Below, piece by piece: positions 48,788-63,855 of a DNA stretch of 64,000 bases (position 1 is its first letter; the number at the start of each line of letters is the position of its first letter). A program made the translations under genes and the position numbers. This DNA comes from an uncultured Chloroflexia bacterium (GTDB lineage: Bacteria; Chloroflexota; Limnocylindria; Limnocylindrales; CSP1-4): contig CAVPJI010000002.1 of the NCBI GenBank assembly GCA_963705215.1, positions 49,818 through 113,817 of the forward strand. The letters run 5' to 3'. The notes beneath the pieces are model-generated. The model saw nothing but the letters and a program-made list of their open reading frames with translations, was not told where the DNA came from and did not search any database.

Positions 48788-50263
48788 CTACGGCAGCGCC
48801 GCGCCCACCGCAGCGGCGGCCGAGCCGACCGCCTCGAGGAGCGGGCCCGGAAAGAGGCCCAGGAGAATCGTGCCCACGCCGGTGATCGTCAGCCCAACGC
48901 GGAGCAGCATCCCGTGGGCGACGGGCGTCGCGTCGCCCTGCGGCTCGCGCATGTACATGTAGACGATGACGCGCAGGTAGTAGAAGGCGGCCGCCGCGGC
49001 GTTGAGGACCGCGATCACCGCGAGCAGGGTCAGCCAGCCGCCGCCCTGGACCGCTGCCAGGATCACGTACGCCTTGCCGAAGAAGCCAGCCGTCGGCGGG
49101 ATCCCTGTCAGGGACAGCAGGAAGAGGACCATCAGGACCCCGAGGATCGGCTCGCGGCGGCCCAGGCCAGCGAACGTCTCGAGCCTGCTCGTCACGCCGG
49201 GGCGCTTCTGGAGCGCCGTGATGACGGCAAAGGCACCAAGGTTCATGAAGGTATAGGCGGCGGCGTAGAACAGGAGCCCTTCGAGGCCCTCGATCTGGCC
49301 CGCGGCGTACGCCGTGAGGCCCACCATCATGTAGCCGGTGTGGGCGATCGAGGAGTAGGCGAGCATTCGCTTCACGTTGTCCTGGGTGAGCGCGACGAGG
49401 TTGCCCAGGGTCATCGTGAAGGCCGCCAGGACGAAGAAGACGATGGCCCACTCGTCCTTCAGCGGTCCGAGCGCCTCGGCGAAGACCCGCAGGATCACCG
49501 CGAAGGCGCCGACCTTCGGCAGCACCGAGAGATAGCCCGTGATCGGCGTCGGCGAGCCCTGGTAGGCGTCGGGCGTCCAGTAGTGGAACGGGACGGCCGC
49601 AATCTTGAAGGCGACGCCGGTGGTCAGGAAGGCGAGGCCCAGGGCAAGGCCCGGCGAGAGGGCCGCCTGGCCTTCGACGATGGCCTCCAGCGCGGCAGCC
49701 ACGTCGCCGACCCGGGTGGAGCCGGTGAGCCCCCAGACGAAGGCCAGCCCGAAGAGAAAGATCGCGCTCGAGAACGAGCCGAGGAGGAAGTACTTGACCG
49801 CACCCTCCGTGGAGAGCGCGTCGCGCTTGTGGTAGCCGGCCAGCATGTAGCCGGGGATCACCATCAGCTCCAGGCCCAGGAAGAGCACCAGGAGATCGGC
49901 CGACGCCGCGATGAGCATCGCTCCCGCGAGGGCGAAGACCAGGATGACGGCGAACTCCGGCACGGGCAGCCCGCGCGCGGCGAGATACTCCGGCCCGAAG
50001 AGGATCGTGAGGGCCACGATCGCCACGAAGACGAGGTCGAGGAAGGTCGTCAGGTCGTCCACGCGGTAGGAGCCGCCGAAGGCGGTTCCGGGCGTTGCCC
50101 CGGCCCATGCGACGAGGGCTGCGACGACCGCCAGGCCCACCAGGCTCACCCCGATGGCGGCCCGTGCACTCGCCGGGGCGACGATGTCGGCCACGATGAT
50201 GAGCGCGGCGAGCAGGACGACCGCGACGAGCGGCGCGATGACGGCGAGGTCGGCAGTGGACAT
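48788..50263 (-). CDS. nuoN: NADH-quinone oxidoreductase subunit N
   Basis: LFLGLELM, EGAVKYFLLGS, FKIAAVPFHYWTPDAYQGSP, KRMLAYSSIAHTG, GIPPTAGFFGK. Confidence 0.95.
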   Translation of the reverse strand: MSTADLAVIAPLVAVVLLAALIIVADIVAPASARAAIGVSLVGLAVVAALVAWAGATPGTAFGGSYRVDDLTTFLDLVFVAIVALTILFGPEYLAARGLPVPEFAVILVFALAGAMLIAASADLLVLFLGLELMVIPGYMLAGYHKRDALSTEGAVKYFLLGSFSSAIFLFGLAFVWGLTGSTRVGDVAAALEAIVEGQAALSPGLALGLAFLTTGVAFKIAAVPFHYWTPDAYQGSPTPITGYLSVLPKVGAFAVILRVFAEALGPLKDEWAIVFFVLAAFTMTLGNLVALTQDNVKRMLAYSSIAHTGYMMVGLTAYAAGQIEGLEGLLFYAAAYTFMNLGAFAVITALQKRPGVTSRLETFAGLGRREPILGVLMVLFLLSLTGIPPTAGFFGKAYVILAAVQGGGWLTLLAVIAVLNAAAAAFYYLRVIVYMYMREPQGDATPVAHGMLLRVGLTITGVGTILLGLFPGPLLEAVGSAAAAVGAALP

Positions 50264-50277
50264 CGGCGGGGCTCCCG

Positions 50278-51822
50278 TCAGTTCCCGAGCGCCGTCGCGA
50301 GCGACGGGTCGACGGCGGCGAGCGCGGCCTTCACGGAGCCGGCGATGAGATCGAGCACCAGGCCGGGGAAGAGGCCGAAGATCACCGTGAGCGCGCCGAG
50401 CGGTGCCAGGGTCAGGATCTCCACCGGCCGCATGTCGGTCAGATGGTGCCCAAGCCCCTTCAGGAAGTCCGAGAGCGGCCCGAAGAGGACCCGCTGCTGC
50501 ATCCAGAGGAGGTAGGCGGCGGCGAGGATCATCACGAAGGTGATCATGACCGCCGTCCACGGGCTGAACGCGAACGTGCCCTGGAAGACGAGGAACTCCC
50601 CGACGAAGCCGGCCAGGCCGGGCAGGCCGACCGAGGCCAAGACGAAGAAGCCGAGCGCGGCCGAGAAGACCGGGACCGGAGCCCCGAGGCCGCCCATGTT
50701 CGCGATCGTCCGGTCGTGCGTCCGCTCGTAGATGACGCCGACGAGGATGAAGAGGGCCCCTGTGATCAGGCCGTGGTTGACCATCTGGAGGATCGCGCCC
50801 TGCATCCCCTGCTCCTGGAAGATGAAGATCCCCAGGGTCACGAAGCCCATGTGGCTGACCGAGCTGTAGGCCACCAGCTTCTTGAGGTCGGGCTGGACGA
50901 GGGCCACGATCGCGCCGTAGATGATGGCGATGACCGAGAGCACGATGATCAGGGGGGCGAAGGCCTGTGCCCCCTCCGGGAAGATCGGCAGGGCGAAGCG
51001 GATGAACCCGTAGGCGCCCAGCTTGAGGAGGACGCCGGCCAGGATCACCGATCCCGCCGTGGGTGCCTCCACGTGGGCATCGGGCAGCCAGGTGTGGAAC
51101 GGGAACATCGGGACCTTGATCGCGAACGCGAGCGCGAAGGCGGCGAACGCGAACAGCTGGAAGGTGCGGTCGAAGCCGTGGCCGGCCAGGTTCTGCAGGT
51201 CGAACGCCCCGTCCCAGCTGCCGGTCGCTGCCTGGTAGGTGAACGCCGTGGCCAGGATCGCCACGAGCATCAGGAGCGACCCCACCAGGGTGTAGAGGAC
51301 GAACTTGATCGTGGCGTAGATCCGGTTGACCCCGCCCCAGATCCCGATGATCAGGTACATCGGGACTAGGACGACTTCCCAGAAGATGTAGAAGAGGAAA
51401 AGGTCGAGCGACACGAAGACGCCCAGCATCCCGACCTCGAGGATCAGGAAGGCGATCATGTACTCCTTCACCCGCTCCTTGATCGGGGAGAAGCTGGCCA
51501 GGATGGAGATCCAGGTGAGGGTCGTGGTGAGGACGACCATCGCCACGGAGAGCCCGTCCACGCCGAGCTTGTACTGGATCCCGAAGAGGGGGATCCAGTC
51601 GAGCTGCTCCACGTACTGGAAGGCCAGCCCGGGGCCTGTCTCGCGCCCCGGCAGGTAGCCCAGGAGGAGCCACAGGCTGACGACCCATGCTGCCAGCGAG
51701 AAGACGAGCGCCGCGCCCCTGATCGCGCCCACGTTGCGGCGCGGGATGAGCGCCACGACGAGCGCGCCGACCAGCGGCAGGAAGGTGATGACGCTCAGGA
51801 TCGGGAAGTCGCCGATGTTCAT
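50278..51822 (-). CDS. nuoM: NADH-quinone oxidoreductase subunit M
   Basis: GVDGLS, FYIFWEVVLVPMY, AIKVPMFPFHTWLPDAHVEAPTAGS, KKLVAYSSVSHMG. Confidence 0.96.
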   Translation of the reverse strand: MNIGDFPILSVITFLPLVGALVVALIPRRNVGAIRGAALVFSLAAWVVSLWLLLGYLPGRETGPGLAFQYVEQLDWIPLFGIQYKLGVDGLSVAMVVLTTTLTWISILASFSPIKERVKEYMIAFLILEVGMLGVFVSLDLFLFYIFWEVVLVPMYLIIGIWGGVNRIYATIKFVLYTLVGSLLMLVAILATAFTYQAATGSWDGAFDLQNLAGHGFDRTFQLFAFAAFALAFAIKVPMFPFHTWLPDAHVEAPTAGSVILAGVLLKLGAYGFIRFALPIFPEGAQAFAPLIIVLSVIAIIYGAIVALVQPDLKKLVAYSSVSHMGFVTLGIFIFQEQGMQGAILQMVNHGLITGALFILVGVIYERTHDRTIANMGGLGAPVPVFSAALGFFVLASVGLPGLAGFVGEFLVFQGTFAFSPWTAVMITFVMILAAAYLLWMQQRVLFGPLSDFLKGLGHHLTDMRPVEILTLAPLGALTVIFGLFPGLVLDLIAGSVKAALAAVDPSLATALGN

Positions 51823-51833
51823 CGTCGTCCTCC

Positions 51834-53849
51834 CTACCTGGCCGCGATCGCGAGGTACGCGCCGGCCATGACGATCAGCCCGATCGCGATGCCCAGCGCG
51901 TAGTTCTGGACGCGCCCGGTCTGCACCCGGCGCAGGCCGCGGCCGGCATCAACCGTGAGGCGGCCCACCCCGTTCACCGTTCCGTCGACGACCGTCCGAT
52001 CGAACCACCACGTCACCGCCGCGACGCGGCCGCCGACGACGATGAACAGGAGGTGGTTCAGGTCATCGAACCACCACTTGTTGAGGCTGGCCCGGTAGAG
52101 GAAGCGGGTGGCGCCGTTGGCGTTCGTGATGGCCTGGACGCGCTCCGGGTGGCCGGCCCGGCGGAAGGCGCCGAAGAGCCAGATCCCGACGACGAGACCC
52201 ACCGTGGCGATGGCGACGCTGACGAGGATGAGGACGCCGTCGATGCCGAACAGCTCGTAGGCCGGCTTGTCCGGGTGGAGCATCTCCTCCGACTCGGCGA
52301 AGACCGGCTCCAGCCAGTGGGTGATCCGCGAATCGCCCAGCGGCGTGCCCAGGAAGGCGCCGAGGAGCGCCGACGGGATGGCCAGCAGGACCAGCGACAG
52401 GGTCATCGTCCACGCTGACTCGTGGATCTGATCCCAGATGCGGCGCACGTACGCCGACGGCTGCCCGTAGAACGTCTTGGCCATCAGGCGCCACATGTAG
52501 AAGGCGGTCATCCCGGCCACGACGAAGCCGATCGCCCAGACCCAGTAGAAGCCGAACTTGAAGCTCTCGGCGAGGATCTCGTCCTTGCTGAAGAAGCCCG
52601 CCAGCGGCGGGATCCCGGCAATCGCCAGCGTGCCAATGAGCATGGTCCAGTGGGTGACGGGGATCTTCCGGCGCAGCCCCCCCATGTTGTTCATGTCCTG
52701 CTCCTCGTGGACGGCGTGGATCACGCTGCCCGAGCCGAGGAAGAGGAGGCCCTTGAAGAACCCGTGGGCCATCAGGTGGAAGATCGCGGCCACGAAGGCG
52801 CCCACGCCGAGCGCGGCGAACATCAGGCCCAGCTGGGACAGGGTCGAGTAGGCCAGGACGCGTTTGATGTCGGTCTGGGTGAAGGCGATCGACGCCGCCA
52901 GGATCGAGGTGAAGATGCCGATCGCGGCCACCACGACCATGACACCCGGGGCCTCGGCGAAGATCGGGTTGGCCCGGGCGATGAGGTAGACGCCCGCGTT
53001 GACCATCGTCGCGGCATGGATGAGAGCCGAGACCGGGGTCGGGCCTTCCATCGCGTCGGGCAGCCAGACGTGGAGCGGGAACTGGGCGCTCTTGCCCACT
53101 GCGCCGCAGAAGACGAGAAACGCGATCGCGGCGATCGTCGCCTGGTCGAGCTCCGCGATCAGCTCGAACGACTCGCGGATGTCGAGCGTCCCGGTGCTGA
53201 CCCAGATGAGCATGATTCCCAGGGCGAACCCGACGTCGCCGACGCGGTTCACGATGAACGCCTTCTTGGCCGCGAGGGCGGCCGAGCGCCTCTGGTACCA
53301 GAACCCGATGAGGAGGTACGAGCTGAGGCCCACCAGCTCCCAGGCGGCGAAGACGGTCAGCCAGCTGTCGCCCAGGACGAGCAGGAGCATGCTGAACATG
53401 AAGAGGTTGAGGTAGGCGAAGAAGCGCCAGCGCCCCGGGTCGTGGGCCATGTAGCCCACCGAGTAGAGGTGGACGATCATGCCGATCGTCGTCACGACGA
53501 TGAGGAGGCAGGCCGTCAGCTGGTCCACGTAGAGACCCATCTCCACCTGGAAGGCCCCGGCCGGGATCCAGGTCCAGAGGGTGATCCCGGCCCCGTGCTC
53601 GCCGAGGCCGCCGCTGAGCGCCTCGTAGACGACCACCATCGCGATCGCCCAGGTGGCGACGATCAGGAGGAGCGGGACCAGGAAGGCGAAGCGCCCGATC
53701 CGGCGCCCGAAGAGCGCCGTGAAGACGAAGCCGGCAAGGGGCAGGACCAGCAGCAGCGGCACGAGGTTGATCACGCCCGCGGCGGCGCTCGACTCGGCCT
53801 CGGCGGCGGCGAGCAGGGGGGCGGCGTGCAGGGCCACGGATTCGAACAC
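51834..53849 (-). CDS. nuoL: NADH-quinone oxidoreductase subunit L
   Basis: YSVGYMAHD, KAFIVNRVGD, GKSAQFPLHVWLPDAMEGPTPVSALIHAATMV, IKRVLAYST. Confidence 0.96.
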   Translation of the reverse strand: MFESVALHAAPLLAAAEAESSAAAGVINLVPLLLVLPLAGFVFTALFGRRIGRFAFLVPLLLIVATWAIAMVVVYEALSGGLGEHGAGITLWTWIPAGAFQVEMGLYVDQLTACLLIVVTTIGMIVHLYSVGYMAHDPGRWRFFAYLNLFMFSMLLLVLGDSWLTVFAAWELVGLSSYLLIGFWYQRRSAALAAKKAFIVNRVGDVGFALGIMLIWVSTGTLDIRESFELIAELDQATIAAIAFLVFCGAVGKSAQFPLHVWLPDAMEGPTPVSALIHAATMVNAGVYLIARANPIFAEAPGVMVVVAAIGIFTSILAASIAFTQTDIKRVLAYSTLSQLGLMFAALGVGAFVAAIFHLMAHGFFKGLLFLGSGSVIHAVHEEQDMNNMGGLRRKIPVTHWTMLIGTLAIAGIPPLAGFFSKDEILAESFKFGFYWVWAIGFVVAGMTAFYMWRLMAKTFYGQPSAYVRRIWDQIHESAWTMTLSLVLLAIPSALLGAFLGTPLGDSRITHWLEPVFAESEEMLHPDKPAYELFGIDGVLILVSVAIATVGLVVGIWLFGAFRRAGHPERVQAITNANGATRFLYRASLNKWWFDDLNHLLFIVVGGRVAAVTWWFDRTVVDGTVNGVGRLTVDAGRGLRRVQTGRVQNYALGIAIGLIVMAGAYLAIAAR

Positions 53850-53874
53850 GCGGGTCTCTCGGGCTCCTCGCGGG

Positions 53875-54186
53875 CTACTGGCGCATGGCGTCGTACTCGT
53901 CGACGAGCGGCGTCCGCCGGTTGCGGTAGATCGCCAAGACGATGGCGAGGCCGACGGTCGCCTCGGCCGCGGCCACCGCCATCACCATGAGGGCGATCAC
54001 CGAGGCGTCGACGTTGAGCTCCGGCACGAAGGCGCCGAAGGCGACGATGGCGAGGTTGACGGCGTTGAGCATCAGCTCGATCGACATGAGCATGCTGATC
54101 GCGTTGCGCCGGGCCAGGAAGCCGAAGCTCCCCACGGCGAAGAGGATGCCGGCAAGGATGAGATAGGCGTCGAGCGACTGGCTCAC
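53875..54186 (-). CDS. nuoK: NADH-quinone oxidoreductase subunit K
   Basis: [26 protein letters not shown]; GTGA overlap with nuoJ. Confidence 0.95.
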
Positions 54187-54716
54187 GCGTCCCGGTCCTC
54201 CCGCTTCGCGAGGAAGACGCTGCCGATGACGGCCGCCAGCAGGAGCACGCTCACGACCTCGAACGGCAGGATGTACTCGTTGAAGAGGAGGCGCGCCAGG
54301 GCGTCGGTGGCGGTCGCGAGCCGGGTGCTTACGTCGCCCCAGTCGGTGGATACGACCGCCAGGGCCACGATGACCGCGATCACGACCGCTGCGATCGCCG
54401 CGGGGACCGCCTGGGTCTGGAAGACGAGGCGAGCCGGCGCGCTCTTGGCCTGGGTCAGCATGACCGCGAAGAGGATGAGGACGGCGATCGCCCCGATATA
54501 GATGAGGACCTGGGCAGCGGCCACGAGCGGCGCACCGAGCATGACGTAGATGCCGGCCAGGGCGCCGAACGCGACGATCATCGCGATCCCGCAACGGATG
54601 ATGTCGCGCAGGGTGACGACCAGCAGGGCACTGCCCAGGAGGATGCCCGCGAGGACGACGAAGAGGACGTCGTTCCAGCTGATCCCCAGGAGCGGCACGG
54701 TGTCCGGGATTGCCAC
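54183..54716 (-). CDS. nuoJ: NADH-quinone oxidoreductase subunit J
   Basis: [37 protein letters not shown]. Confidence 0.95.
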
Positions 54717-54728
54717 CTCTCGCCTCGC

Positions 54729-57377
54729 TCAGTCGGTGCCGTGGGAGGATGGCGCGTGCGTGGTGTCGTGCGCCGTGTCGTGCGCCCCGCCGCCTTGGCC
54801 ATGGCCGTGGTGCCCGGAGCCGTTCCCGTTCCCGCTGCCGCCCGCGATCGACGCCGGGAGGACGGGCAGCATGCGCGGCCCGATGTCACGCCCCGCGGCG
54901 AGCGCCCGCTCGGCCCAGTCGGGCTCGCGCCGGATGTAGGTCATCTCCGTCTCGCGGTCCACGGCCGCGATCGCGATGAGGTCGATCATCGGCTCTTCGC
55001 GGCTCGTGTGGGCCAGCTCGAAGTCCGGGCCGCAGCGGAGCGCGTCGTAGGGGCAGGCGTCCACGCAGATGCCGCACAGGATGCAGCGGCTCTCGTCCAC
55101 CTCGTACTTCTCGAGGATCCGCGGCTTGGGCATGAGGGCGCCCGTTGGGCATGTCTCGGCGCACCGGCCGCACGAGACGCAGGGCGTGTCGTTGAGGCTC
55201 ATGTCGAGTGGCGTCGTGACCAGCGTGTCGAAGCCGATCCGCATGAAGTCGTAGCACGCCGCGCCCACCACCTCCGCGCACACGTTCGCGCAGCGGCCAC
55301 AGTCGATGCAGCGCGAAGGCTCGCGCAGGATGAAGGCGTGGCTGTCGTCGCGGAGGTAGTCGTGGTTGGTGCCGGTGAAGCGGTTCTCGGTGACGCTGCG
55401 GAAGCCGGCCCCGCGGTTGTTCTGCGGCTCCAGCGTGCGCAGGGTCGTCCCATACTCGATGCCCAGGCGGCGCAGGTCGCAGAACCCGATCGCCTCGCAG
55501 GTGCACTGGAGGCAGCGCGTGCTCTCCGCGACCGCCGCCTCGCGGCTGTACGGGATCTCGTACTCGATGTACGAGTCGCGCCGCGCCTCGCCGGGCATGC
55601 TGGAGAGGCGGTGCCGGGATTCCTTGACCTCGGAGGTGAAGGGGACGATGGAGAGGAATTCCGGCTGCGGCTCGGCCAGCGTCTGGCGGGTTCGGATCGC
55701 CGCCAGGTCCAGGCCCTGCAGGAAGGCGTCGACGGCGTACGCGGCACGCCGGCCGTCGGCGATCGCCTGGACGACCGTGGCGGCGCCGGTGCGGACGTCG
55801 CCCGTCCCGAAGATGCCGGGCCGGCCCGTCTCGAACGTAACCGGATCCACCTTGAGGCGCCACTGCTTCGTCTTCTCCAGCCCCGCGTTGCCGCCCCCGA
55901 GCCAGGTCAGGTCCGGCCCCTGGCCGATGGCGAGGAGGACGCGGTCGCACTCGATGACGAACTCGGTCCCGGCCGCCGGTTCGGGGCGCCGGCGGCCCGA
56001 GGCGTCGGGAGCGCCGAGCTGCATCCGGATGAACTCCACGCCGGAGACCTTGCCGGTCGCCTCGTCCACCAGGACGCGGGTCGGGCCGGCCTGGAAGATC
56101 ATGGTGACGCCTTCCTCGATCGCCTCGTGGACCTCGCTGGACGCCGGCATGTCCTTCATGTCACGGCGGTAGACGAGCGTCACCTCGTCGGCGTGCTGGC
56201 GGACCGACGTCCGCGAGCAGTCCATCGCGGTGAAGCCGCCGCCGATCACGACGACGCGGGTGCCGGCGTGGCCCGGGTAGGTCAGGCCGAGGGTGGCGAT
56301 CTTGAGGTACTCGAGCCCGTCGATGACGCCGTCGGCGTCCTCGCTGGGGATTCCCAGCTTGTTCGTGTCGTAGCAGCCGATGGCGACCACGACCGCGTCG
56401 AACCCCTGGTTCTGCAGGTCATCGAGGCTGAAGTCGCGCCCCAGCGCCTGGCCGCACACGAAGCGCCCGCCCAGGCGGGTGACGCTCTCGTACTCGGGGT
56501 CGAGGACGCGTTCCTTCGGCAGGCGGTACTCGGGGATGCCGTAGCGGAGCATGCCGCCGGGGGCCTCGTCGCGCTCGAGGATCGTGACGTCGTGACCCGC
56601 GATCAGGAGGTAGTAGGCAGCCGACGCGCCGGCCGGCCCGGAGCCGATCACTGCCACACGCTTGCCCGTCTTCGGCTGCAGCTCGAAGGGGAGCGGCGGG
56701 TCGATGTCCTGCTCGCGCATCTCCCGCAGGACCTGGTCGCCGGCGTAGCGGTGGCTGTCGCGGATCGCGATCGCCTCGTCCACCTCGTCGCGGCGGCAGT
56801 GCTCCTCGCAGGGCGCCGGGCAGACGCGGCCCAGGATCGAGGGGAAGGGGATCGTCCGCTTGAAGATGCGGGCCGACTCGCGGAACTCGCCCTCGGCGTT
56901 CGCCTTGAGGAAGCCCGGAATGTCGATGTGGCTGGGGCACTTGTTCTGGCAGGGCGGGAGGCAGTACGCGTTGTGGTCGGAGAAGATCAGCTCCAGGTTC
57001 GTCCGCCGGATCCGCCGGATCTCCTCGGTCTGGGTCCGCACCACCATCCCGGCCTCGGCCGCGCGCGAGCACGAGATGGGCGGATGCTCCTCGCCTTCCA
57101 CCTCCACCACGCACATCCGGCAGGCGCCGAAGCCGGGCAGCTTGGGCTCGTAGCAGAGGGTCGGGATCTCGATCCCGTTGTCGCGGCAGACTTCCAGGAT
57201 CGTCTGTCCCTCGCGGCCCTCGACGAGCCGCCCGTCGACCTCGAGCCGGATTGCGGGAGTCGACTGCGGCCGCTGGGGCGCCTGCGTCCGGAAGAGGCGC
57301 TCGGCGAGGCTGTCGACGGCCGGCTCGGGGCTGGTCGGCGGGGCGATGTCGGCGGGGCGCGAGATCAGGTCGGCCAT
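54729..57377 (-). CDS. fusion: NuoG-type 2Fe-2S + GltD-like flavin/NAD(P)H domain + NuoG-type 4Fe-4S clusters + C-terminal half of NuoI
   Basis: PTLCYEP...GACRMCVVE...ISC; [18 protein letters not shown]; GSGPAG; [11 protein letters not shown]; RCLQCTC..CDL; [11 protein letters not shown]; [12 protein letters not shown]; [30 protein letters not shown]. Confidence 0.85.
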
Positions 57378-57391
57378 CGTTCGGTCGTCGC

Positions 57392-58771
57392 CTACCTTCC
57401 GGCGGCGGCGGCTGGCAGCCGGATCGGGCTGCAGACGCCGGCGGGGCAGACGCCCCGGAGGATGTGGTCGTCGATCTCGGGACCGAAGTATCGCATCGCG
57501 GTCCGGAGGGGACCGGACGCCAGCCGCTCGTGGTCGCACAGGGCGCTCGCGGCGCAGTCGTCGGCAAGCTCCGCGAGCAGCTTCGGGTCGCCGGGGAGGG
57601 CCGTGCCCTCGACGTAGCGCTGGCCGATCTCGGCGAGGCGGCGCAGGCCGATCCGGCAGGGGATCGTCTTGCCGCAGGCCTCGTCAGCCCCGAAGCGGAC
57701 CAGCAGCCGCGCCAGGTCCACGACGCAGGCGCGCTCGTCGGCGATCACGACGGCGCCCGACCCGACGTGGGCGCCGGTCGCGCGGAGCGCGTCGAACGAG
57801 TAGGGCGTGTCGAGCAGCTCTTCCGGCAGGAGGCCGCCGGTCGGGCCGCCGACGAGGGCCGCCTTGAACGTGTGCCCGGCGGCCACGCCACCGGCCAGGT
57901 CCACGAGATCGCGGAGCGTGGTCCCGGTCGCGACCTCGACGATCCCGGGGTTCGCGACCGCGCCGGATACTCCCACGAGGACGGTGCCCGGGGCGTCGGG
58001 GTCGCCGATGGCTCGGAACGCGTCAGCACCGTTGGTGACGATCCAGGGCAGCGACGCGAGGGTGGCCACGTTGTGGACGAGGGTGGGGCGGCCCCACAGG
58101 CCGCGCTCGGCGGGATACGGCGGGCGCTGCTCGGGCTGCCCTCGGCGCCCTTCGAGGGCGGCGATGAGGACCGTCTCCTCGCCCAGCATGTACGCGCCCT
58201 GCACCGTGCGGACCGTGACGGCGACGTCGCGGCCGGAGCGCAGGATGTCCCGGCCAAGGAACCCGGCCTCTTCGGCGGCGAAGACGGCCGCCTCCAGGGC
58301 CGCCACCGCGTCGGCGTACTCGGCCCGGACCGCGATGATCGCCTGGCGCGCGCCGACCGCGAGGGCCGCGATCGCGATCCCTTCCACCACGGCAAAGGGG
58401 CGTGCCTGCATGAGGACCCGGTTAGTGGCCTGGGCCGGGTCCGCCTCGTACCCGTTGCCCACGACGTACCGGACCGGGTCGGCGGCACCTGCGACGGCCC
58501 GCCACTTGGCGCCCGCCGGGTAGCCGGCCCCGCCCCGGCCGCGCAGGCCGGACGCGACGATCGTGAGCAGGGTGCCGGTGGGCCCCAGGTTGCCGACCAC
58601 GGAGCGAAGCGCGGCGAACGCGCCGCCCGCAACCGCGGCCGCGAGGTCCGGCGCGCGGTCGGGCGCGCCGTCGGGCGCGCCGTCGGGCGCGCGGTCGGGC
58701 GCGATCGTCGCCACGGCGTCGCCCAGGATCGGGCGGGGCTGGCCGGCCGGACTCGTGAGGATCGTCGTCAT
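57392..58771 (-). CDS. nuoF: NuoF/HydB-like FMN flavoprotein with degenerate Fe-S motif
   Basis: SGLRGRGGAGYP, GAYMLGEETVL, GLWGRPTLVHNVATL, VGGPTGG, EACGKTIPCRIG, HILRGVCPAGVC. Confidence 0.85.
   Translation of the reverse strand: MTTILTSPAGQPRPILGDAVATIAPDRAPDGAPDGAPDRAPDLAAAVAGGAFAALRSVVGNLGPTGTLLTIVASGLRGRGGAGYPAGAKWRAVAGAADPVRYVVGNGYEADPAQATNRVLMQARPFAVVEGIAIAALAVGARQAIIAVRAEYADAVAALEAAVFAAEEAGFLGRDILRSGRDVAVTVRTVQGAYMLGEETVLIAALEGRRGQPEQRPPYPAERGLWGRPTLVHNVATLASLPWIVTNGADAFRAIGDPDAPGTVLVGVSGAVANPGIVEVATGTTLRDLVDLAGGVAAGHTFKAALVGGPTGGLLPEELLDTPYSFDALRATGAHVGSGAVVIADERACVVDLARLLVRFGADEACGKTIPCRIGLRRLAEIGQRYVEGTALPGDPKLLAELADDCAASALCDHERLASGPLRTAMRYFGPEIDDHILRGVCPAGVCSPIRLPAAAAGR
58648..58703 (-). 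repeat. 12-bp coding tandem repeat (PDRA/PDGA) near NuoF N-terminus
   Basis: GTCGGGCGCGC(C/G) units on + strand encoding PDRAPDGAPDGAPDRAPD. Confidence 0.8.
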
Positions 58772-58775
58772 CGGT

Positions 58776-59609
58776 TCAGTGGACCGTGCGGGTGGCCGGG
58801 TGCTCCCCGGCAAGCGCCTGGGCCCAGGCGGTGGCATTCGCGGTCGTCACTTCCGGCTGGACCTCGCCGTCGAGGGCCACGAGCGGGGCGGCCGCGCCGG
58901 GCGGGTGCGTCGGCAGCCACGCGTAGCGGATCCGGCCGTCGGGCGTGGGCCGGCCAAGCTCCGTCCGGAGGCCTGCGCCGATCGCGTCCGCAAGCCGACC
59001 ACCGCCGGCCATGAGGCAGGCCGTGCAGCGGCAGACGGCAACCTCCTCCACGGCCCGCTCGAGCCGGAGGTGGCGGTAGTAGCTGGCGGTGCCGTAGATC
59101 ATCGCGTACCAGGCGCCCGTCCGGTGGCTGATCCGCTTGAGCGCCGCGATCGGCAGGTGCCCGCACTCGGCCTGGACCGCCTCGAGGATCGAGAGCATCT
59201 GGTGGGGGTCGTGGTCGTGCGCCTCGAGGATCGCGTCGATCACCGCCAGGTCGACGGATTCGAAGTGCGCGTACAGCTCATCCGGAACCTCGCGCCCGGC
59301 GCGGCGGAGCGCCGATTCAGTGCGCCGCTCGCCGTACGTCTCGGCTGCGCCCCAGTGGACCGCATAGCGGCCCTTCGTGTCCCGGCCGCCCATGTCGATG
59401 CACTCGATCGGGCAGGCCTGGGCGCACTGGAAGCAGGTCTCGCACTTGAGCGTGCCGTGCTCGTCGTACAGGAGCTGGAGCCGCCCGCGGTACTTCACCG
59501 CGATGTCCGGGTCCACCTCGGGGTACTTGATCGTGAGCGGGGGCTGGAAGAAGCGGCGCATGGTGAGGGCCATCCCCTTGACCAGCCCGAGACCAGGGAT
59601 GCTGCTCAT
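58776..59609 (-). CDS. fusion: N-terminal half of NuoI + NuoE-like domain with degenerate 2Fe-2S site
   Basis: GMALTMRRFF..TIKYPE..YRGRLQL..KCETCFQCAQACPIECI (single motif), then ILEAVQAECGHLP, YGTASYY, VCRCTACLMAG, TPDGRI. Confidence 0.85.
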   Translation of the reverse strand: MSSIPGLGLVKGMALTMRRFFQPPLTIKYPEVDPDIAVKYRGRLQLLYDEHGTLKCETCFQCAQACPIECIDMGGRDTKGRYAVHWGAAETYGERRTESALRRAGREVPDELYAHFESVDLAVIDAILEAHDHDPHQMLSILEAVQAECGHLPIAALKRISHRTGAWYAMIYGTASYYRHLRLERAVEEVAVCRCTACLMAGGGRLADAIGAGLRTELGRPTPDGRIRYAWLPTHPPGAAAPLVALDGEVQPEVTTANATAWAQALAGEHPATRTVH

Positions 59610-59619
59610 CGCCGCCTCC

Positions 59620-60963
59620 TCACCCGTTGGCCAGGATCGAGACCGCCATGGCGGTCGCGAAGATGTTGAGGAGGGCGGCCGGCAGGAGCCACTTCCAGGC
59701 GAAGCCCATGAGCTGGTCCACCCGGACCCGCGGGAACGTTGCCCGCATCTGGACGAAGACGATGACGAAGAGGTAGCTCTTGGCCATCATCCAGAAGAGC
59801 CCGGCGACCCAGTCGAGGCTGATGAACGCCCAGCCCAGGAGGGCGCCGACCGCCAGGACGTTGAAGAGGATGAAGCCGATAGCGAGCGCCTGGAGGGTCG
59901 AGACGCGCGAGGAGCCGAGCCAGAAGGGCAGGGCAAGAAGGAGGGTTCCCAGCAACGGGACCAGTGCCACGTAGAAGAGGAGGCCCAGCCCCAGGCTCCC
60001 CGGGTCGAGGTTCAGCTCGATCGCGAAGGGCCAGTCGAACGGAGCGTTCCAGCCGCCGAAGAAGAGGACGGCGATCATCGCCGACATCACGAACACGTTG
60101 ACGTACTCGGCGAAGAAGAAGAAGCCGAAGCGCATCCCGGAGTACTCGGTGGCGAAGCCGGCCACGATCTCCTGGTCGGCCTCGGTCATGTCGAGCGGGG
60201 TCCGGTTCGTCTCGGCGATGCCGGCGATGAAGAAGATGAGCAGGCCCAGCGGCTGCTTGAAGACGTTCCAATCCAGGACCGAGCCGGCCTGCTGCTCCAC
60301 GATGGAATTCAGGCTCAGCGTGCCGGCCAGGATGATGATGCCCACCACCGAGAGGGTGAGCGGGATCTCGTAGCTGATCGCCTGGGCCGCCGCGCGCAGC
60401 GCCCCGAGGAGGCTGTACTTGTTGAAGCTGGCCCAGCCGGCCATCATCAGGCCGACGACGTTCAGGCCGCCGATCGCGAAGAAGTAGAGCAGGGCGATAT
60501 TGAAGTCCTGCGCCACGAGGCCGGGCGCGAACGGGATCACGAGGAAGCTCATGATCGTCGCGAGGAAGACGGCGACCGGGGCGACCGTGAAGATCGGGAC
60601 GTCCACGCCGCGCGGGGTGTAGTCCTCCTTCGCGAGCACCTTCAGGCCGTGGACCACGCTCATCGCGAGCCCGAAGGGCCCCACCCGGTCCGGCCCCACC
60701 CGGAGGTTCATCCGCGCGATCACCTTGAGCTCGAGCAGGATGATCAGGAAGGCCGTGGGGATCGTCATCACGATCACGACCGTCGCGGCGACGATGAAGC
60801 GCACCAGGTCCGGGTTCGCGGCCAGGAAGTCGAGGAGCGGGGGCACGAGCAGGGCGATGGCGACCGTGGCCACGCCTCCCAGCACGAGGAGCGTCGGCAG
60901 GCCGACCAGGACGACTCGCGACGGGATAGAGAGCCGGTTCCAGTAGGACGTCACGGCGGTCAT
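59620..60963 (-). CDS. nuoH: NADH-quinone oxidoreductase subunit H (with extra hydrophobic insertion)
   Basis: RVGPDRVGPFG, LAKED, KYSLLGALRAAAQAISYE, AETNRTPLDMTEADQEIVAGFATEYSG, ATFPRVRVDQLM. Confidence 0.95.
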   Translation of the reverse strand: MTAVTSYWNRLSIPSRVVLVGLPTLLVLGGVATVAIALLVPPLLDFLAANPDLVRFIVAATVVIVMTIPTAFLIILLELKVIARMNLRVGPDRVGPFGLAMSVVHGLKVLAKEDYTPRGVDVPIFTVAPVAVFLATIMSFLVIPFAPGLVAQDFNIALLYFFAIGGLNVVGLMMAGWASFNKYSLLGALRAAAQAISYEIPLTLSVVGIIILAGTLSLNSIVEQQAGSVLDWNVFKQPLGLLIFFIAGIAETNRTPLDMTEADQEIVAGFATEYSGMRFGFFFFAEYVNVFVMSAMIAVLFFGGWNAPFDWPFAIELNLDPGSLGLGLLFYVALVPLLGTLLLALPFWLGSSRVSTLQALAIGFILFNVLAVGALLGWAFISLDWVAGLFWMMAKSYLFVIVFVQMRATFPRVRVDQLMGFAWKWLLPAALLNIFATAMAVSILANG

Positions 60964-60976
60964 CGGCGGACGGCCT

Positions 60977-62191
60977 TCACTTGTCCACCCCGCCCATGAC
61001 CGGGTCGAGCGAGGCCATGATCGCCATCGTGTCCGGGATGAGGTTGCCCGGCATGAGCAGGCTCATCAGCTGGAGGTGGAGGAAGCTGGGGTCGTGGATC
61101 CGCATCCGGAAGGGCTGGTCCGTGCCGTCGCTGATCACGTAGGTGGAGTACTGTCCGCGCGGCGCCTCCACCGCGGCAAAGGCGCGGCCGGGACGCGGCC
61201 GCAAGAGCCGCGGCAGCCGCGCCGAGACGGGCCCGTCGGGCATCTGGTGGAGGCACTGGTCGATGATCCGCAGGCTCTGGCGCACCTCGTCCATCCGGAG
61301 CAGGTAGCGGGCCAGCGAATCGCCCTCGCTCCGCGTCGGGATGTCGAAGTCGAGCTCCGGGTAGACGCTGTACGGGTGGGCCCGGCGGAGGTCGAAGGGG
61401 ACGCCCGACGCCCGCAGGTTCGGGCCGCTCACGCACATCCGGAGGGCCGTCTCGCGATCGATCACGCCCATGCCCCGGGCGCGCCGGACGAAGATCTCGT
61501 TCTCGTTGAGGAGGCCCATGCCGGCCTCGACCTGCCCGCCGGCGCGGCTCATCCAGTCGCCCAGGCGGCTCATGAACTCGTGGTTCAGGTCGCCGTTGAC
61601 GCCGCCGATCCGGAAGTAGTTGAAAAGGAGCTTCTGGCCGGTCAGGGCGGCCAGCATCTCCATGATCTCGTCGCGCTCGGCAAAGCTCCACAGGATCGGG
61701 GTGATCCCGCCAAGGTCCAGGGCGAACCAGCCCATGTAGAGCATGTGGCTCGCCACCCGGTTGAGCTCGGCGGAGAGGACCCGGATGTACTCGGCGCGCC
61801 GCGGCACCTCGAGGTCCAGGAGCTTCTCGAAGGAGAGGACCGCCCCCCACTCGTTGAAGAGCGAGCTGATGTACTCGAGGGGGTCCACCTGGCTGATGAC
61901 CTGGTGGTAGTCGGCGTTCTCGCAGAGCTTCTCGACGCCGCGATGGAGATAGCCCAGCACGGGGTCCAGGTCGGTGACCTGCTCGCCGTTGATCTTGAGG
62001 ATCACCCGCAGCACGCCGTGGGTGGACGGATGCTGCGGCCCCATGTTGAGGAGCATCTCGCCGTCCTTGAGGGCGAGGAACTCCCGCTGGCGCTCGGTCC
62101 GGGCGAGCGGGATCGGGTCGAAGATGCCGGCGTGGTCGACCGGGATCGTGAGCGCCGGGTCGTCGAGGCTGGGCCGCGTCGGGGTCGTCAT
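60977..62191 (-). CDS. nuoD: NADH-quinone oxidoreductase subunit D
   Basis: NMGPQHPSTHGVLR, GYLHRGVEK, YFRIGGV, VEAPRG, RMRIHDPSF. Confidence 0.96.
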   Translation of the reverse strand: MTTPTRPSLDDPALTIPVDHAGIFDPIPLARTERQREFLALKDGEMLLNMGPQHPSTHGVLRVILKINGEQVTDLDPVLGYLHRGVEKLCENADYHQVISQVDPLEYISSLFNEWGAVLSFEKLLDLEVPRRAEYIRVLSAELNRVASHMLYMGWFALDLGGITPILWSFAERDEIMEMLAALTGQKLLFNYFRIGGVNGDLNHEFMSRLGDWMSRAGGQVEAGMGLLNENEIFVRRARGMGVIDRETALRMCVSGPNLRASGVPFDLRRAHPYSVYPELDFDIPTRSEGDSLARYLLRMDEVRQSLRIIDQCLHQMPDGPVSARLPRLLRPRPGRAFAAVEAPRGQYSTYVISDGTDQPFRMRIHDPSFLHLQLMSLLMPGNLIPDTMAIMASLDPVMGGVDK

Positions 62192-62201
62192 GTCCTCTCG
62201 C

Positions 62202-62753
62202 CTACGCCCCGGGCGTCGTGCGGCGCAGGGTGGTCTCGTCGGCGTCCTTCGGAGCGACCGCCCGCTCCATCGGCCGGATGCCGCCGCCCGGCGAGCGCGC
62301 GGCGTCGTCGGCGAGGTGGAAGTCCTTGCGCAGCGGGAAGCTCACGAAGTCGTCCGGCAGGTAGATGCGCCGGAGGTCGCGGTTCCCCTCGAAGACGAGG
62401 CCGAACATGTCGTAGGCCTCGCGCTCCATCCACTCGGCTCCCTTCCACAGGAAGGTGAGCGAGGGAACGCGCGGCTCCTCGCGGGGGATCTCGTCCACGA
62501 CGACCCGCAGCCAGTCGGGGGTCACGTCGCTCCACAGGTGGTAGACCACCTGGAACGTCGTCCCGGTGTCAACGCCGCACAGGTCGGCGAGATATTCGAA
62601 GCGCAGGTCCGGCTCGTCGTGCAGGGTCCGCATGACCTGGGGCAGGTCGCCCGGCCGGATCCGGATCTCGGTCTGGTCCTGGCGCTGGCGGACGGGGCCC
62701 TCCATCGAGGATCCCAGCTTCCGCTCCAGGAGCGCCTTGAGCGCACGGTCCAC
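62202..62753 (-). CDS. nuoC: NADH-quinone oxidoreductase subunit C
   Basis: FEYLADLCGVD, AEWMEREAYDMFG, DLRRI, FPLRKDF. Confidence 0.94.
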   Translation of the reverse strand: MDRALKALLERKLGSSMEGPVRQRQDQTEIRIRPGDLPQVMRTLHDEPDLRFEYLADLCGVDTGTTFQVVYHLWSDVTPDWLRVVVDEIPREEPRVPSLTFLWKGAEWMEREAYDMFGLVFEGNRDLRRIYLPDDFVSFPLRKDFHLADDAARSPGGGIRPMERAVAPKDADETTLRRTTPGA

Positions 62754-62755
62754 GG

Positions 62756-63508
62756 TCAGATCCCCTCCGGAACCGTGGGGCCGATGTTGCGCTCGGGCCA
62801 GTGTCCGCGGCGGTCGCGGACGAGGTGCTGGAGCTTCATCATCCCGTAGATGAGGCCCTCGGGGCGGGGCGGGCAGCCGGGGATGTAGACGTCCACGGGG
62901 AGGACCCGATCGATCCCCTGGATCGTGCTGTAGCTCCGCTTGTAACGGCCCCCGGAGCAGGTGCAGTCGCCCATCGCGACCACCCACTTCGGCTCCGGCA
63001 TCTCCTCCCAGAGCCGGATGAGCGGCTCGGCCATCTTCGTCGTCAGGGTGCCGGCCACGATCAGCACGTCGGCCTGGCGGGGCGAGGCCCGGAACGGGAA
63101 CATGCCCCAGCGATCGATGTCGTTGCGGCTCGTCGCGGTCGACATCATCTCGATCGCACAGCAGGCCAGCCCGGAGAGGAGCGGCCAGAGACTGTTGAGA
63201 CGGATCAGATCCAGGACGTAGTCGGCCTTCGTGGGGACCACGTCGAGGGCGCCCCAGCGGCCGTCATTCCTGCGCCCCTCGCCGGTCTCGTCGTAGCGCT
63301 TGAGGGCGAGCGTCGGCGCCTCGTCGAGAGGAACGCCGTCGTAGGCCTCGCTGTCGGCCGGCGTCCAGAGCATGTTCGGGACGACGACCGGCTCGGCGAC
63401 CGCGTCGGCCGCAGTCGTGGCCGGGATGGGAAGGCGGCTGCCGGGCGTGCCGGGCGGCGGGCCGCCGGCGGGCGGGGTGCTGTCGGCTGGCGGCGGGGTC
63501 AGCGCCAC
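62756..63508 (-). CDS. nuoB: NADH-quinone oxidoreductase subunit B (Pro-rich N-terminal extension)
   Basis: [38 protein letters not shown]. Confidence 0.95.
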
Positions 63509-63855
63509 GTCAGCACTCCCTTGCGCCACGCGTAGGCCAGCCCCAGGAGCAGGATGCCGACGAAGATCATCATCGAGGCCATCAGGCCCGGGATCGGGTC
63601 GCGCACGACGAGCGCCCACAGGAAGATGAAGACGACCTCGATGTCGAAGGCGACGAAGAGCAGCGCGTAGATGTAGTACGAAACGCCGAACCGCCCATGG
63701 GTGTCGCCGTAGGTCGGAATGCCGCTCTCGTACGGGAGCCCCTTGAGCGGGCTCCCCTTCGTGCGGTGGCTGATCAGCCACGAAGCGCCGATCGTCAGGA
63801 AGACGAACGTGACGCCCGCGAAGGCGAAGCCGACGACGTACCAGATGCCTTCCAT
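63499..63855 (-). CDS. nuoA: NADH-quinone oxidoreductase subunit A
   Basis: [34 protein letters not shown]; SD GAGGTG. Confidence 0.95.

Follow-up and report, generated by a model that had tools for sequence, protein, structure and literature searches.

On the minus strand of a 64,000-nucleotide stretch of DNA from an uncultured bacterium of the class Candidatus Limnocylindria (Chloroflexota; GenBank assembly GCA_963705215.1, contig CAVPJI010000002.1, positions 49,818 to 113,817), which we call the window and which has a G+C content of ~72%, lies a nuo operon, the gene set of respiratory complex I. Its order is nuoABCDH-X-F-Y-JKLMN. Eleven core subunits (A, B, C, D, H, I, J, K, L, M and N) are encoded in this one operon, with NuoI present solely as two halves carried on X and Y. 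No canonical NuoE (cluster N1a, four Cys), NuoF (cluster N3, four Cys and the NADE loop) or NuoG with its C-terminal domain is encoded at the operon. The region of interest here, 55600-56960 on the minus strand, corresponds exactly to residues 140-593 of Y, an 882-residue protein whose start codon is the ATG at 57377, 14 nucleotides after the preceding gene. The best explanation of the sequence comparisons below is that this region encodes the entry point, built around flavin adenine dinucleotide (FAD) and nicotinamide adenine dinucleotide phosphate in its reduced form (NADPH), of a rebuilt complex I.

From its N terminus, Y comprises a [2Fe-2S] domain, a GltD/NfnL-type flavin unit, a Cys4 cluster site, a 2x[4Fe-4S] ferredoxin domain, the C-terminal half of NuoI and a Gly/His-rich tail. 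Pfam places Fer2_4 at residues 42-117 (E = 4e-20), Fer4_20 at 139-217 (2e-17), Pyr_redox_2 at 240-542 (1e-29) and 4Fe-4S dicluster domains at 729-781. Y is collinear with the A subunits of Nfn-Bfu transhydrogenases: residues 43-774 align to Caldicellulosiruptor saccharolyticus NfnA (PDB 9bov_A; PMC11829005) with E = 1e-157, residues 43-776 to S. ovata StnC (8oh5_C) with E = 1e-139, and T. sibiricus NfnA (9n5u_A) is likewise collinear, over the first ~700 residues of all three. Those A subunits are NuoG/HydA-like proteins with a GltD/NfnL unit inserted behind the 2Fe-2S domain (PMC10482914), so a GltD unit placed there, ahead of the later clusters, is the known NfnA/StnC layout. On these alignments, Y is an StnC/NfnA-type subunit of Nfn-Bfu transhydrogenases and not a modified NuoG. 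A preliminary description of the window had already likened the fusion to the A subunit of NfnABC-type enzymes and had seen no molybdopterin-like NuoG C-terminal domain; the alignments bear out the likeness, and no molybdopterin domain is found among the best 25 of 28 Pfam families in Y. Its statement that the flavin unit replaces the NuoG C-terminal domain does not hold, as the unit is inserted after the 2Fe-2S domain, as in StnC and NfnA, and it is the NuoI C-terminal half that replaces the C-domain.

The cluster sites of Y are conserved across the class. These motif counts cover up to 31 class sequences, and the few sequences without a given motif are truncated or frameshifted draft contigs. 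The four ligands of cluster A1 (C75, C86, C89 and C103) are present in 30/30 complete sequences, and both motifs of clusters A6 and A7 (H135-x3-C139-x3-C143-x3-C147-P and C186-x3-C190-x3-C194) are invariant in 30/30. The Cys4 motif (C622-x2-C-x-C-x5-C633) is kept in 31/31 and the motifs of clusters A2 and A4, whose roles we take from PMC12018979 and PMC11829005, in 29-31/31. A His/Cys3 cluster had been placed after the flavin unit; the site there is the Cys4 motif, and the one His and three Cys (H135-x3-C-x3-C-x3-CP) stand at the entrance to the GltD unit. The tail, residues 801-882, is poorly conserved, with a Gly/Asn/His-rich stretch; it occurs in one family of the class (f1) and is absent from another, the most distant (f3).

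Taken alone, the GltD part of Y is closest to NfnA and StnC, then to NfnB and NfnL, then to GltD, with bit scores of 366 for T. sibiricus NfnA, 346 for C. saccharolyticus NfnA, 298 for StnC, 269 for T. maritima NfnB, 251 for NfnL, 222 for A. brasilense GltD and 131 for DPD. An AlphaFold model of Y is confident for the 2Fe-2S domain and the flavin unit only (predicted local distance difference test, pLDDT, 80-95 at residues 220-560), and residues 220-560 of the model superpose on P. furiosus NfnL, T. maritima NfnB and A. brasilense GltD with target-normalised template-modelling scores of 0.78-0.79. Judged by both sequence and model, the likeness of the flavin unit is far beyond chance. The unit is also complete, with a Fer4_20 domain holding two [4Fe-4S] sites followed by an FAD fold (GxGxxG) and an NADPH fold (GxGxxA), the architecture of GltD, NfnB and the N-terminal part of DPD. 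YRR, which marks the NADPH-binding members, follows strand beta-2 of the second fold in 31/31 sequences. All six motifs previously quoted from this region, LVYRR included, are present in Y.

The segment around the NADPH fold aligns without gaps to GGGNTAMD...YRR...MPA of T. sibiricus NfnA, T. maritima NfnB and StnC and also aligns to GGGDTAMD...YRR...MPG of A. brasilense GltD. With C. saccharolyticus NfnA, the GxGxxA...YRR signature matches residue for residue in five solved NADPH-dependent enzymes altogether, which upholds the earlier reading of YRR as an NADPH signature. R285 of Y, the equivalent of the essential R239 of StnC (PMC10482914), is conserved in the class; it, GGGFTAMD, YRR and the Cys/His motifs are each present in 29-31/31 sequences. 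These matches suggest that the flavin domain of Y may oxidise NADPH.

The NuoI profile TIGR01971 (121 positions) matches in two pieces, positions 1-64 in residues 12-76 of X and positions 71-116 in residues 753-798 of Y. Each half carries one CxxCxxCxxxCP motif, so by ferredoxin-fold chemistry clusters N6a and N6b must be built jointly, at the interface of X and Y. The motif in Y (C765, C768, C771 and C775) is conserved in 29/30 class sequences, all eight NuoI Cys are conserved across X and Y in the class, and the NuoI half of Y begins 13 residues past the A4 motif. The flavin subunit had been described as fused to NuoI; it is indeed covalently joined to it within a complete nuo operon, but to only half of NuoI. 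The remainder of X is a NuoE-like domain with best matches in NfnC (9bov_C) and StnA (8oh5_A), which retains CxCxxC and, in 31/31 sequences, has no second pair of Cys for the [2Fe-2S] site. Gene order X-F-Y equals stnA-B-C and nfnC-B-A. Comparison with these enzymes shows a module of Nfn-Bfu (Stn/NfnABC) type, made up of three genes (NuoE-like, NuoF-like, and a NuoG N terminus plus GltD), inside nuoI, and the simplest reading is that the whole nfn/stn cassette sits there with in-frame fusions at both ends. Six genomes (L025, L033, L034, L036, L037 and L038) have an X of only ~220 residues from which the thioredoxin-like part, including the Cys triad, is gone; on sequence grounds this short form shows further erosion of the NuoE arm.

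F, the flavoprotein between X and Y, is likewise closest to the bifurcating family, with best PDB matches in the Bfu-type B subunits HydB, NfnB and StnB (E ~1e-105) ahead of the best complex I NuoF (2e-82). It retains GLRGRGGAGYP, GEET, PPYP and K89, and the otherwise invariant NADE reads NGYE (across the class, N-(G/L/A)-(Y/M/I)-(G/E/Q)). Its N3/B1 site has three Cys (C366-x2-T369-x2-C372...C412); among 31 class sequences the second Cys position holds Thr in 16, Ala in 13, Ser in 1 and Cys in 1, and the other three Cys are kept in 31/31. A three-Cys C-x2-x-x2-C...C pattern is typical of [3Fe-4S] sites, and such a cluster may be present here. Neither Pfam nor the PDB alignments find an N-terminal thioredoxin domain or a C-terminal ferredoxin domain in F, which aligns only to residues ~117-525 of HydB/NfnB and ends at CPAGVC. 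Bifurcating BfuBC pairs are recognised by a flavobicluster of B1, flavin mononucleotide (FMN) and C1, with four Cys in each cluster, and by AFM and GGPSG motifs (PMC10482914, PMC11829005, PMC12018979). X and F lack this set: AFM is lost and reads QAT, and GGPSG reads GGPTG. By the hallmarks of the Stn and Nfn structure papers, then, the sequence of the bifurcating core is that of a dismantled one, and the chain from NADPH to the clusters is intact.

These three genes sit in an otherwise complete complex I. NuoA, B, C, D, H, J, K, L, M and N are all present at full length by NCBIfam and Pfam, with NuoL, NuoM and NuoN matching full-length above curated subfamily cut-offs (Table 1). The upstream genes nuoA, B, C, D and H supply the quinone (Q) module and the start of the membrane arm, nuoJ, K, L, M and N (48788-54716) supply the rest of that arm, and the N2 and Q-site motifs are intact. 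We infer that quinone reduction by this enzyme is coupled to proton translocation. In addition, residues 319-385 of NuoH form a hydrophobic insertion of ~67 residues, which probably adds two transmembrane helices. NuoH of family f3 lacks it, and the tblastn alignment to f3 is interrupted at residues 318/386.

Table 1. Features of the nuo operon and of genes X, F and Y; positions are those of the window.
Feature	Position	Strand	Basis or remark
nuoA	63499-63855	minus	NCBIfam match
nuoB	62756-63415	minus	NCBIfam match; N2 Cys motifs kept, read from translation
nuoC	62202-62714	minus	NCBIfam match
nuoD	60977-62191	minus	NCBIfam match; HPSTHG and GYLHRG kept
nuoA, B, C, D, H together	59620-63855	minus	Upstream operon part
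nuoH	59620-60963	minus	NCBIfam match
NuoH 319-385, insertion	59809-60009		
Gene X (277 aa)	58776-59609	minus	TIGR01971, PF01257
X 9-81, NuoI N-terminal half, first CxxCxxCxxxCP	59367-59585	minus	TIGR01971
X 121-260, NuoE/BfuC-like thioredoxin domain	58830-59249	minus	PF01257; NfnC/StnA alignment
Gene F (459 aa), NuoF/BfuB-type flavoprotein core	57392-58771	minus	
Gene Y (882 aa), StnC/NfnA-type subunit	54729-57377	minus	Pfam, PDB alignments, TIGR01971
Y 42-117, NuoG/HydA-type [2Fe-2S] domain (A1, N1b-equivalent)	57027-57254	minus	Fer2_4
Y 131-217, GltD/DPD-type Fe-S domain (A6, A7)	56727-56987	minus	Fer4_20
Y 218-556, FAD and NADPH Rossmann folds	55710-56726	minus	Pyr_redox_2
GSGPAG in Y	56628-56645	minus	
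GGMLRYGIP in Y	56532-56558	minus	
GGGFTAMD in Y	56220-56243	minus	
YRR in Y	56163-56171	minus	
Y 622-633, Cys4 site, N5 position (A3 of NfnA)	55479-55514	minus	Same motif in NfnA and StnC
Y 690-744, HydA-type 2x[4Fe-4S] domain, all eight Cys (A2 junction cluster, A4)	55146-55310	minus	Fer4_7, Fer4_Nqo3
Y 753-798, NuoI C-terminal half	54984-55121	minus	TIGR01971 positions 71-116 of 121
Y 801-882, tail	54732-54977		
nuoJ	54183-54716	minus	NCBIfam NuoJ
nuoK	53875-54177	minus	NCBIfam NuoK
nuoL	51834-53849	minus	NCBIfam NuoL
nuoM	50278-51822	minus	NCBIfam NuoM
nuoN	48788-50281	minus	NCBIfam NuoN

A search of the source genome (81% complete) for a canonical NuoEFG elsewhere found none. It has a single NuoH, and the two other NuoF homologues lie at a NiFe-hydrogenase locus and a formate dehydrogenase (Fdh)-like locus, so no complex I other than this operon was seen in the genome. 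One homologue is a 1057-residue NuoE-NuoF-GltD fusion (L001; G000:C6:28085-31255, minus strand), in which a NuoE-like domain precedes a canonical NuoF (CNADEGDPGAYMNR, ESCGKCVPCRVG) and a GltD unit with YRR. Beside it (C6:25292-28081) are a HoxU-like gene and a NiFe-hydrogenase large subunit, and the locus resembles one for a soluble hydrogenase that has an NAD as well as an NADP site. In the second homologue (L002; G000:C17:16790-21706, minus strand), a NuoE-NuoF fusion is flanked on either side by a piece of a formate-dehydrogenase alpha subunit; of these, the molybdopterin piece holds an in-frame TGA, possibly selenocysteine, and several GltD-fused FdhA representatives in the protein library likewise stop at ...HCARL, directly before the expected selenocysteine.

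The arrangement typifies the class. The X fusion is full-length in 33/33 sampled class genomes and in 0/268 other Chloroflexota, and in a second sample, of five families, Y is found in 41/41 genomes; its close homologues carry the public names Chloroflexota and Candidatus Limnocylindrales. The order D-H-X-F-Y is kept in 30/30 fetched class loci. A canonical NuoG exceeds the curated TIGR01973 cut-off in 1 of the 41 genomes, not the source genome, and just one of the 41 has a second strong NuoH, beside its canonical NuoG; 30/41 have a single NuoH match, counting one whose match is split in two pieces. We also looked at neighbouring pathways in these 41 genomes: PntB is present in 40, MenD is over its cut-off in nine, including the source genome (432 bits), and MqnA of the futalosine pathway was found in none. 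In family f3, ~1.4-1.9 kb separate Y from nuoJ (L017 9297-10543; likewise L018, L019 and L024), and in L017 this gap holds two extra genes, for a 134-residue protein and a 281-residue protein with an HxHxDH motif typical of the metallo-beta-lactamase fold.

Within the input module, the part from FAD to NuoI is the best conserved across the class. Between the window proteins and those of f3, identity is 73% for the GltD Fe-S part, 65% for the NuoI C-terminal half, 63% for the A3/A2/A4 clusters, 56% for the FAD/NADPH folds, 55% for the 2Fe-2S domain and 52% for the NuoI N-terminal half, falling to 43-46% for F and 31% for the NuoE-like domain. The ratio of nonsynonymous to synonymous substitution rates (dN/dS) is 0-0.08 for the Fe-S parts of Y, 0.14-0.16 for the GltD folds, 0.11-0.15 for F, 0.20-0.24 for the NuoE-like domain and 0.18-0.31 for NuoH and NuoJ. 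Every segment, including the eroded bifurcation parts of X and F, is thus under purifying selection. We considered whether F and the NuoE domain are decaying; their dN/dS of 0.11-0.24 rules this out.

A sister form occurs outside the phylum. In a library of 1.8 billion representative proteins, a single protein from outside Limnocylindria carries the NuoI half (P0143, 816 residues, 45% identical to Y), and its contig reads nuoABCDH-X'-F'-Y'-JKLMN. We collected 76 related loci from metagenome-assembled genomes, nearly all labelled Thermoleophilia, Actinomycetes or Actinomycetota, with two labelled otherwise; the gene order is the same wherever the contig is long enough. The sister form has NuoI split as in Limnocylindria, together with complete BfuB and BfuC: X' has all four NuoE Cys in 52/52, and F' is a complete BfuB with thioredoxin domain, C-terminal ferredoxin domain, CNADEGDPGAFMDR in 49/49 and four B1 Cys in 49/49. 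In a maximum-likelihood tree of Y (76 sequences, 794 columns, the fused-NuoI columns dropped by the fill filter), Limnocylindria and Thermoleophilia form one clade (Shimodaira–Hasegawa-like approximate likelihood ratio test, 100), each group is monophyletic (100), and NfnA/StnC-like proteins without the NuoI half fall outside. Recent transfer of the whole operon between the two groups is unsupported, since NuoD is 44-46% identical between them, a level that NuoD of Limnocylindria and of other Chloroflexota also reaches (at most 46%). An assembly or frameshift artefact is ruled out, as the fusions and gene order recur in the 30 fetched class loci and in ~60 Thermoleophilia loci.

The two groups erode in complementary ways. 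YRR is kept in 41-43/50 Y' sequences, and a subclade of 7/50 (L047 8001-10448 and six others) has a degenerate second Rossmann fold, in which GDGFAAAE ... WLSPCAR replaces GGGFTAMD ... YRR while the FAD fold and all clusters are retained. Where F' is canonical, then, the NADPH fold can be lost; in Limnocylindria, where F is eroded, it never is. To us, this complementary pattern is the best comparative evidence that the FAD/NADPH site works as an inlet in the window's lineage.

Our best reading, which we consider probable, is that the operon encodes a proton-pumping NADPH:quinone oxidoreductase that may also accept NADH and does not bifurcate electrons. In the homologous structures, NADPH binds beside FAD and electrons pass from FAD through A7, A6 and A3 to A2, the centre of a Y-shaped junction from which A2-A1-B1 leads to FMN, while A4 (and A5) form an unused 'overflow' branch, a dead end in the soluble enzymes (PMC10482914, PMC11829005, PMC12018979). 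By analogy, NADPH would pass a hydride to FAD in Y, and single electrons would then travel through A7, A6 and A3 to the junction cluster A2, as in NfnA and StnC. From A2 they would leave via A4 to clusters N6a and N6b of NuoI, then to N2 and quinone. We propose A4 as the outlet because all eight A2/A4 Cys are kept and the NuoI half starts directly beyond its motif. Reduction of quinone, likely menaquinone in the source genome given its MenD, would drive the intact NuoH/J/K/L/M/N proton pump, and the covalent tethers at both ends could take over the docking that the missing NuoG C-domain would otherwise provide. The arm A2-A1-B1-FMN leading to F appears to be retained, with all ferredoxin-branch and bifurcation hallmarks gone, which would make F most likely a second, NADH-specific inlet, or a partly decayed one. 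The net reaction would be NAD(P)H:quinone oxidoreduction coupled to proton pumping; bifurcation would not be needed, as quinone is far more positive than NADPH. We hold with moderate confidence that NADPH is a physiological donor to quinone through the flavin domain of Y. The proton-pumping, NADPH-fed complex I of the preliminary description is supported in part: its inlet is intact, conserved and joined to the pump, its donor preference, the role of the NuoF-like site and the wiring are predictions, and the exchange for a NuoG C-domain was anatomically inexact.

Several observations weigh against this reading. F keeps, two of them as Tyr, the NADH-contact residues of C. saccharolyticus NfnB (PMC11829005), namely F159 (Tyr here), K164, E274 and F294 (Tyr here), as well as the Glu that selects NADH over NADPH (PMC12018979), and its dN/dS is ~0.14. 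Because it keeps these contacts under purifying selection, NADH may still be a donor, possibly the main one. The wiring from A4 to NuoI is deduced solely from the continuity of the chain and the retention of A4; electrons may instead exit via A3, at the N5 position, as they do in canonical complex I. In its Fe-S region the AlphaFold model is unreliable (pLDDT <50 at residues 624-820) and does not place the NuoI half relative to A4. Mapped by alignment onto NfnA and StnC, the Lys ligand of A7 (K170 of StnC, K165 of T. sibiricus NfnA), reported as conserved in all NfnABC enzymes (PMC10482914, PMC12018979), corresponds to H209 of Y, and His occupies the position in 30/30 Limnocylindria and 50/50 Thermoleophilia. 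Finally, the PntB of nearly all class genomes marks cells that spend proton-motive force on making NADPH, so that burning it in respiration looks wasteful unless regulated.

A first rival is an NADH-only complex I, in which, as in the canonical enzyme, F and its FMN are the working inlet and the GltD unit is an inherited structural passenger or a regulatory NADP(H) sensor that delivers no electrons in vivo. F does keep GRGGAGFP, GEET, PPYP and K89 under purifying selection, this is the sole complex I in most of the class and heterotrophs have to reoxidise NADH, and the 7/50 Thermoleophilia relatives without an NADPH fold evidently still function. We nonetheless consider this unlikely: the FAD, NADPH and A6/A7 motifs are invariant in 30-31/31 class sequences and better conserved than F, which is itself altered at otherwise invariant sites (NADE to N-G/L/A-Y/M/I-G/E/Q, and one B1/N3 Cys gone), and a 420-residue passenger would not retain catalytic motifs at a dN/dS of ~0.15.

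If both nucleotide sites work, the A2 junction might mainly swap electrons among NADPH at FAD, NAD(H) at FMN and quinone, balancing the pools with quinone as overflow. Such a respiration-linked transhydrogenase fits the ancestry of the module, an NADPH:NAD+/ferredoxin transhydrogenase, and the retention of both sites and of the A2-A1-B1 arm; indeed FAD-A7-A6-A3-A2-A1-B1-FMN is a proven path in StnABC and NfnABC (PMC10482914, PMC11829005). Without a ferredoxin branch, however, nothing would couple NADH-to-NADP+ transfer energetically, an uncoupled short circuit beside a quinone sink would drain mostly to quinone, and these cells already have PntAB, all of which makes this reading quite improbable. 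Running the enzyme backwards, with proton-motive force and quinol reducing NADP+ at the FAD site to give biosynthetic NADPH directly, is possible in that complex I is reversible; the FAD site of NfnA/StnC also runs both ways in vitro (PMC10482914). Nothing favours it here, though, and we regard it as very improbable: near-universal PntB already links the NADH and NADPH pools through proton-motive force and supplies NADPH, the window gives no sign of a lithotrophic lifestyle that needs reverse electron flow, and the step from menaquinol to NADP+ is steeply uphill. Respiratory oxidation of NADPH through Y remains our preferred reading.

In textbooks, complex I is by definition an NADH dehydrogenase whose NuoEFG inlet is invariant and whose NuoI is in one piece. 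The whole of this class, abundant in soil and freshwater, and a sister clade within Thermoleophilia depart from this: their inlet is of transhydrogenase ancestry, lies within a split core subunit and has an intact NADPH/FAD site. Should NADPH feed the pump directly, their NADPH pool would serve as a respiratory fuel. This pool is usually more reduced than that of NADH and would offer more driving force for pumping with low-potential menaquinone. More speculatively, and with clear doubt, complex I may have gained a nicotinamide-oxidising module twice, the second time independently of NuoEFG by entry of an nfn/stn cassette into nuoI wired through A4 rather than N5; the enzyme would be three-terminal in Limnocylindria (NADPH/FAD, NAD(H)/FMN and quinone) and four-terminal in Thermoleophilia, where a ferredoxin branch could couple quinone reduction to bifurcation. 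The two lineages form a natural experiment: with the bifurcation parts shed in one and kept in the other, they could together show which Bfu parts bifurcation needs and how modules dock on the complex I chassis.

In full-text searches of the literature, we found no description of a GltD-bearing complex I with split NuoI; the nearest accounts are PMC9304861 and PMC4758237. The closest relatives of the input module are NfnABC and StnABC (C. saccharolyticus 9BOV, S. ovata 8OH5 and T. sibiricus 9N5U). Both share the C-B-A gene order, and Y has the NfnA/StnC layout of 2Fe-2S domain, His/Cys entrance motif, GltD/NfnL unit with YRR, Cys4 A3 site and 2x[4Fe-4S] domain. F resembles BfuB more than NuoF, and the NuoE part of X resembles BfuC more than NuoE. 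Unlike those enzymes, Y lacks A5 and any Fdh/molybdopterin-like domain (the C-terminal Fdh/NuoG-like domain is complete in StnC and C. saccharolyticus NfnA and partial in T. sibiricus NfnA) and has His in place of Lys at A7. F lacks the thioredoxin and ferredoxin domains and AFM and has three Cys at B1, X lacks two of the four BfuC cluster Cys, and X-F-Y is fused at both ends to NuoI halves inside a nuo operon, the enzyme being predicted to be membrane-bound, quinone-linked and probably not bifurcating.

Among complex I enzymes, the predicted 'Nuo-Bfu' form of Deferribacteres, Proteobacteria, Planctomycetes and Nitrospirae, with 14 subunits A-N (Schut et al. 2022, PMC9304861), likewise has a BfuABC-type module mid-nuo operon instead of NuoEFG and is predicted to feed menaquinone and pump protons. 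As described there, it has a complete bifurcating BfuB, with NADH and ferredoxin as the proposed donor pair, and neither a GltD/NADPH domain nor a split of NuoI is mentioned; that study also required a ferredoxin-type 4Fe-4S domain (IPR017896) in BfuB homologues, and F has none. With canonical complex I (T. thermophilus 4HEA; M. smegmatis 8E9G), the operon shares A, B, C, D, H, J, K, L, M and N, the Q-site and N2 motifs, clusters at the N1b, N4 and N5 positions and tight gene packing, and it differs in having NuoI on two chains, no NuoG C-terminal domain, an extra FAD/NADPH unit, the extra cluster A4, no N1a and three Cys at N3. The mbx-like operons that Thermotoga and some proteobacteria carry (Degli Esposti 2015, PMC4758237) also join a GltD-type NAD(P)-binding flavoprotein, at the NuoI position, to a membrane module of the complex I family. 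It takes the place of NuoI there, in an Mbx-type enzyme that oxidises ferredoxin and reduces NAD(P)+, whereas the true Nuo operon described here retains NuoI, in split form, together with a NuoEFG-like module.

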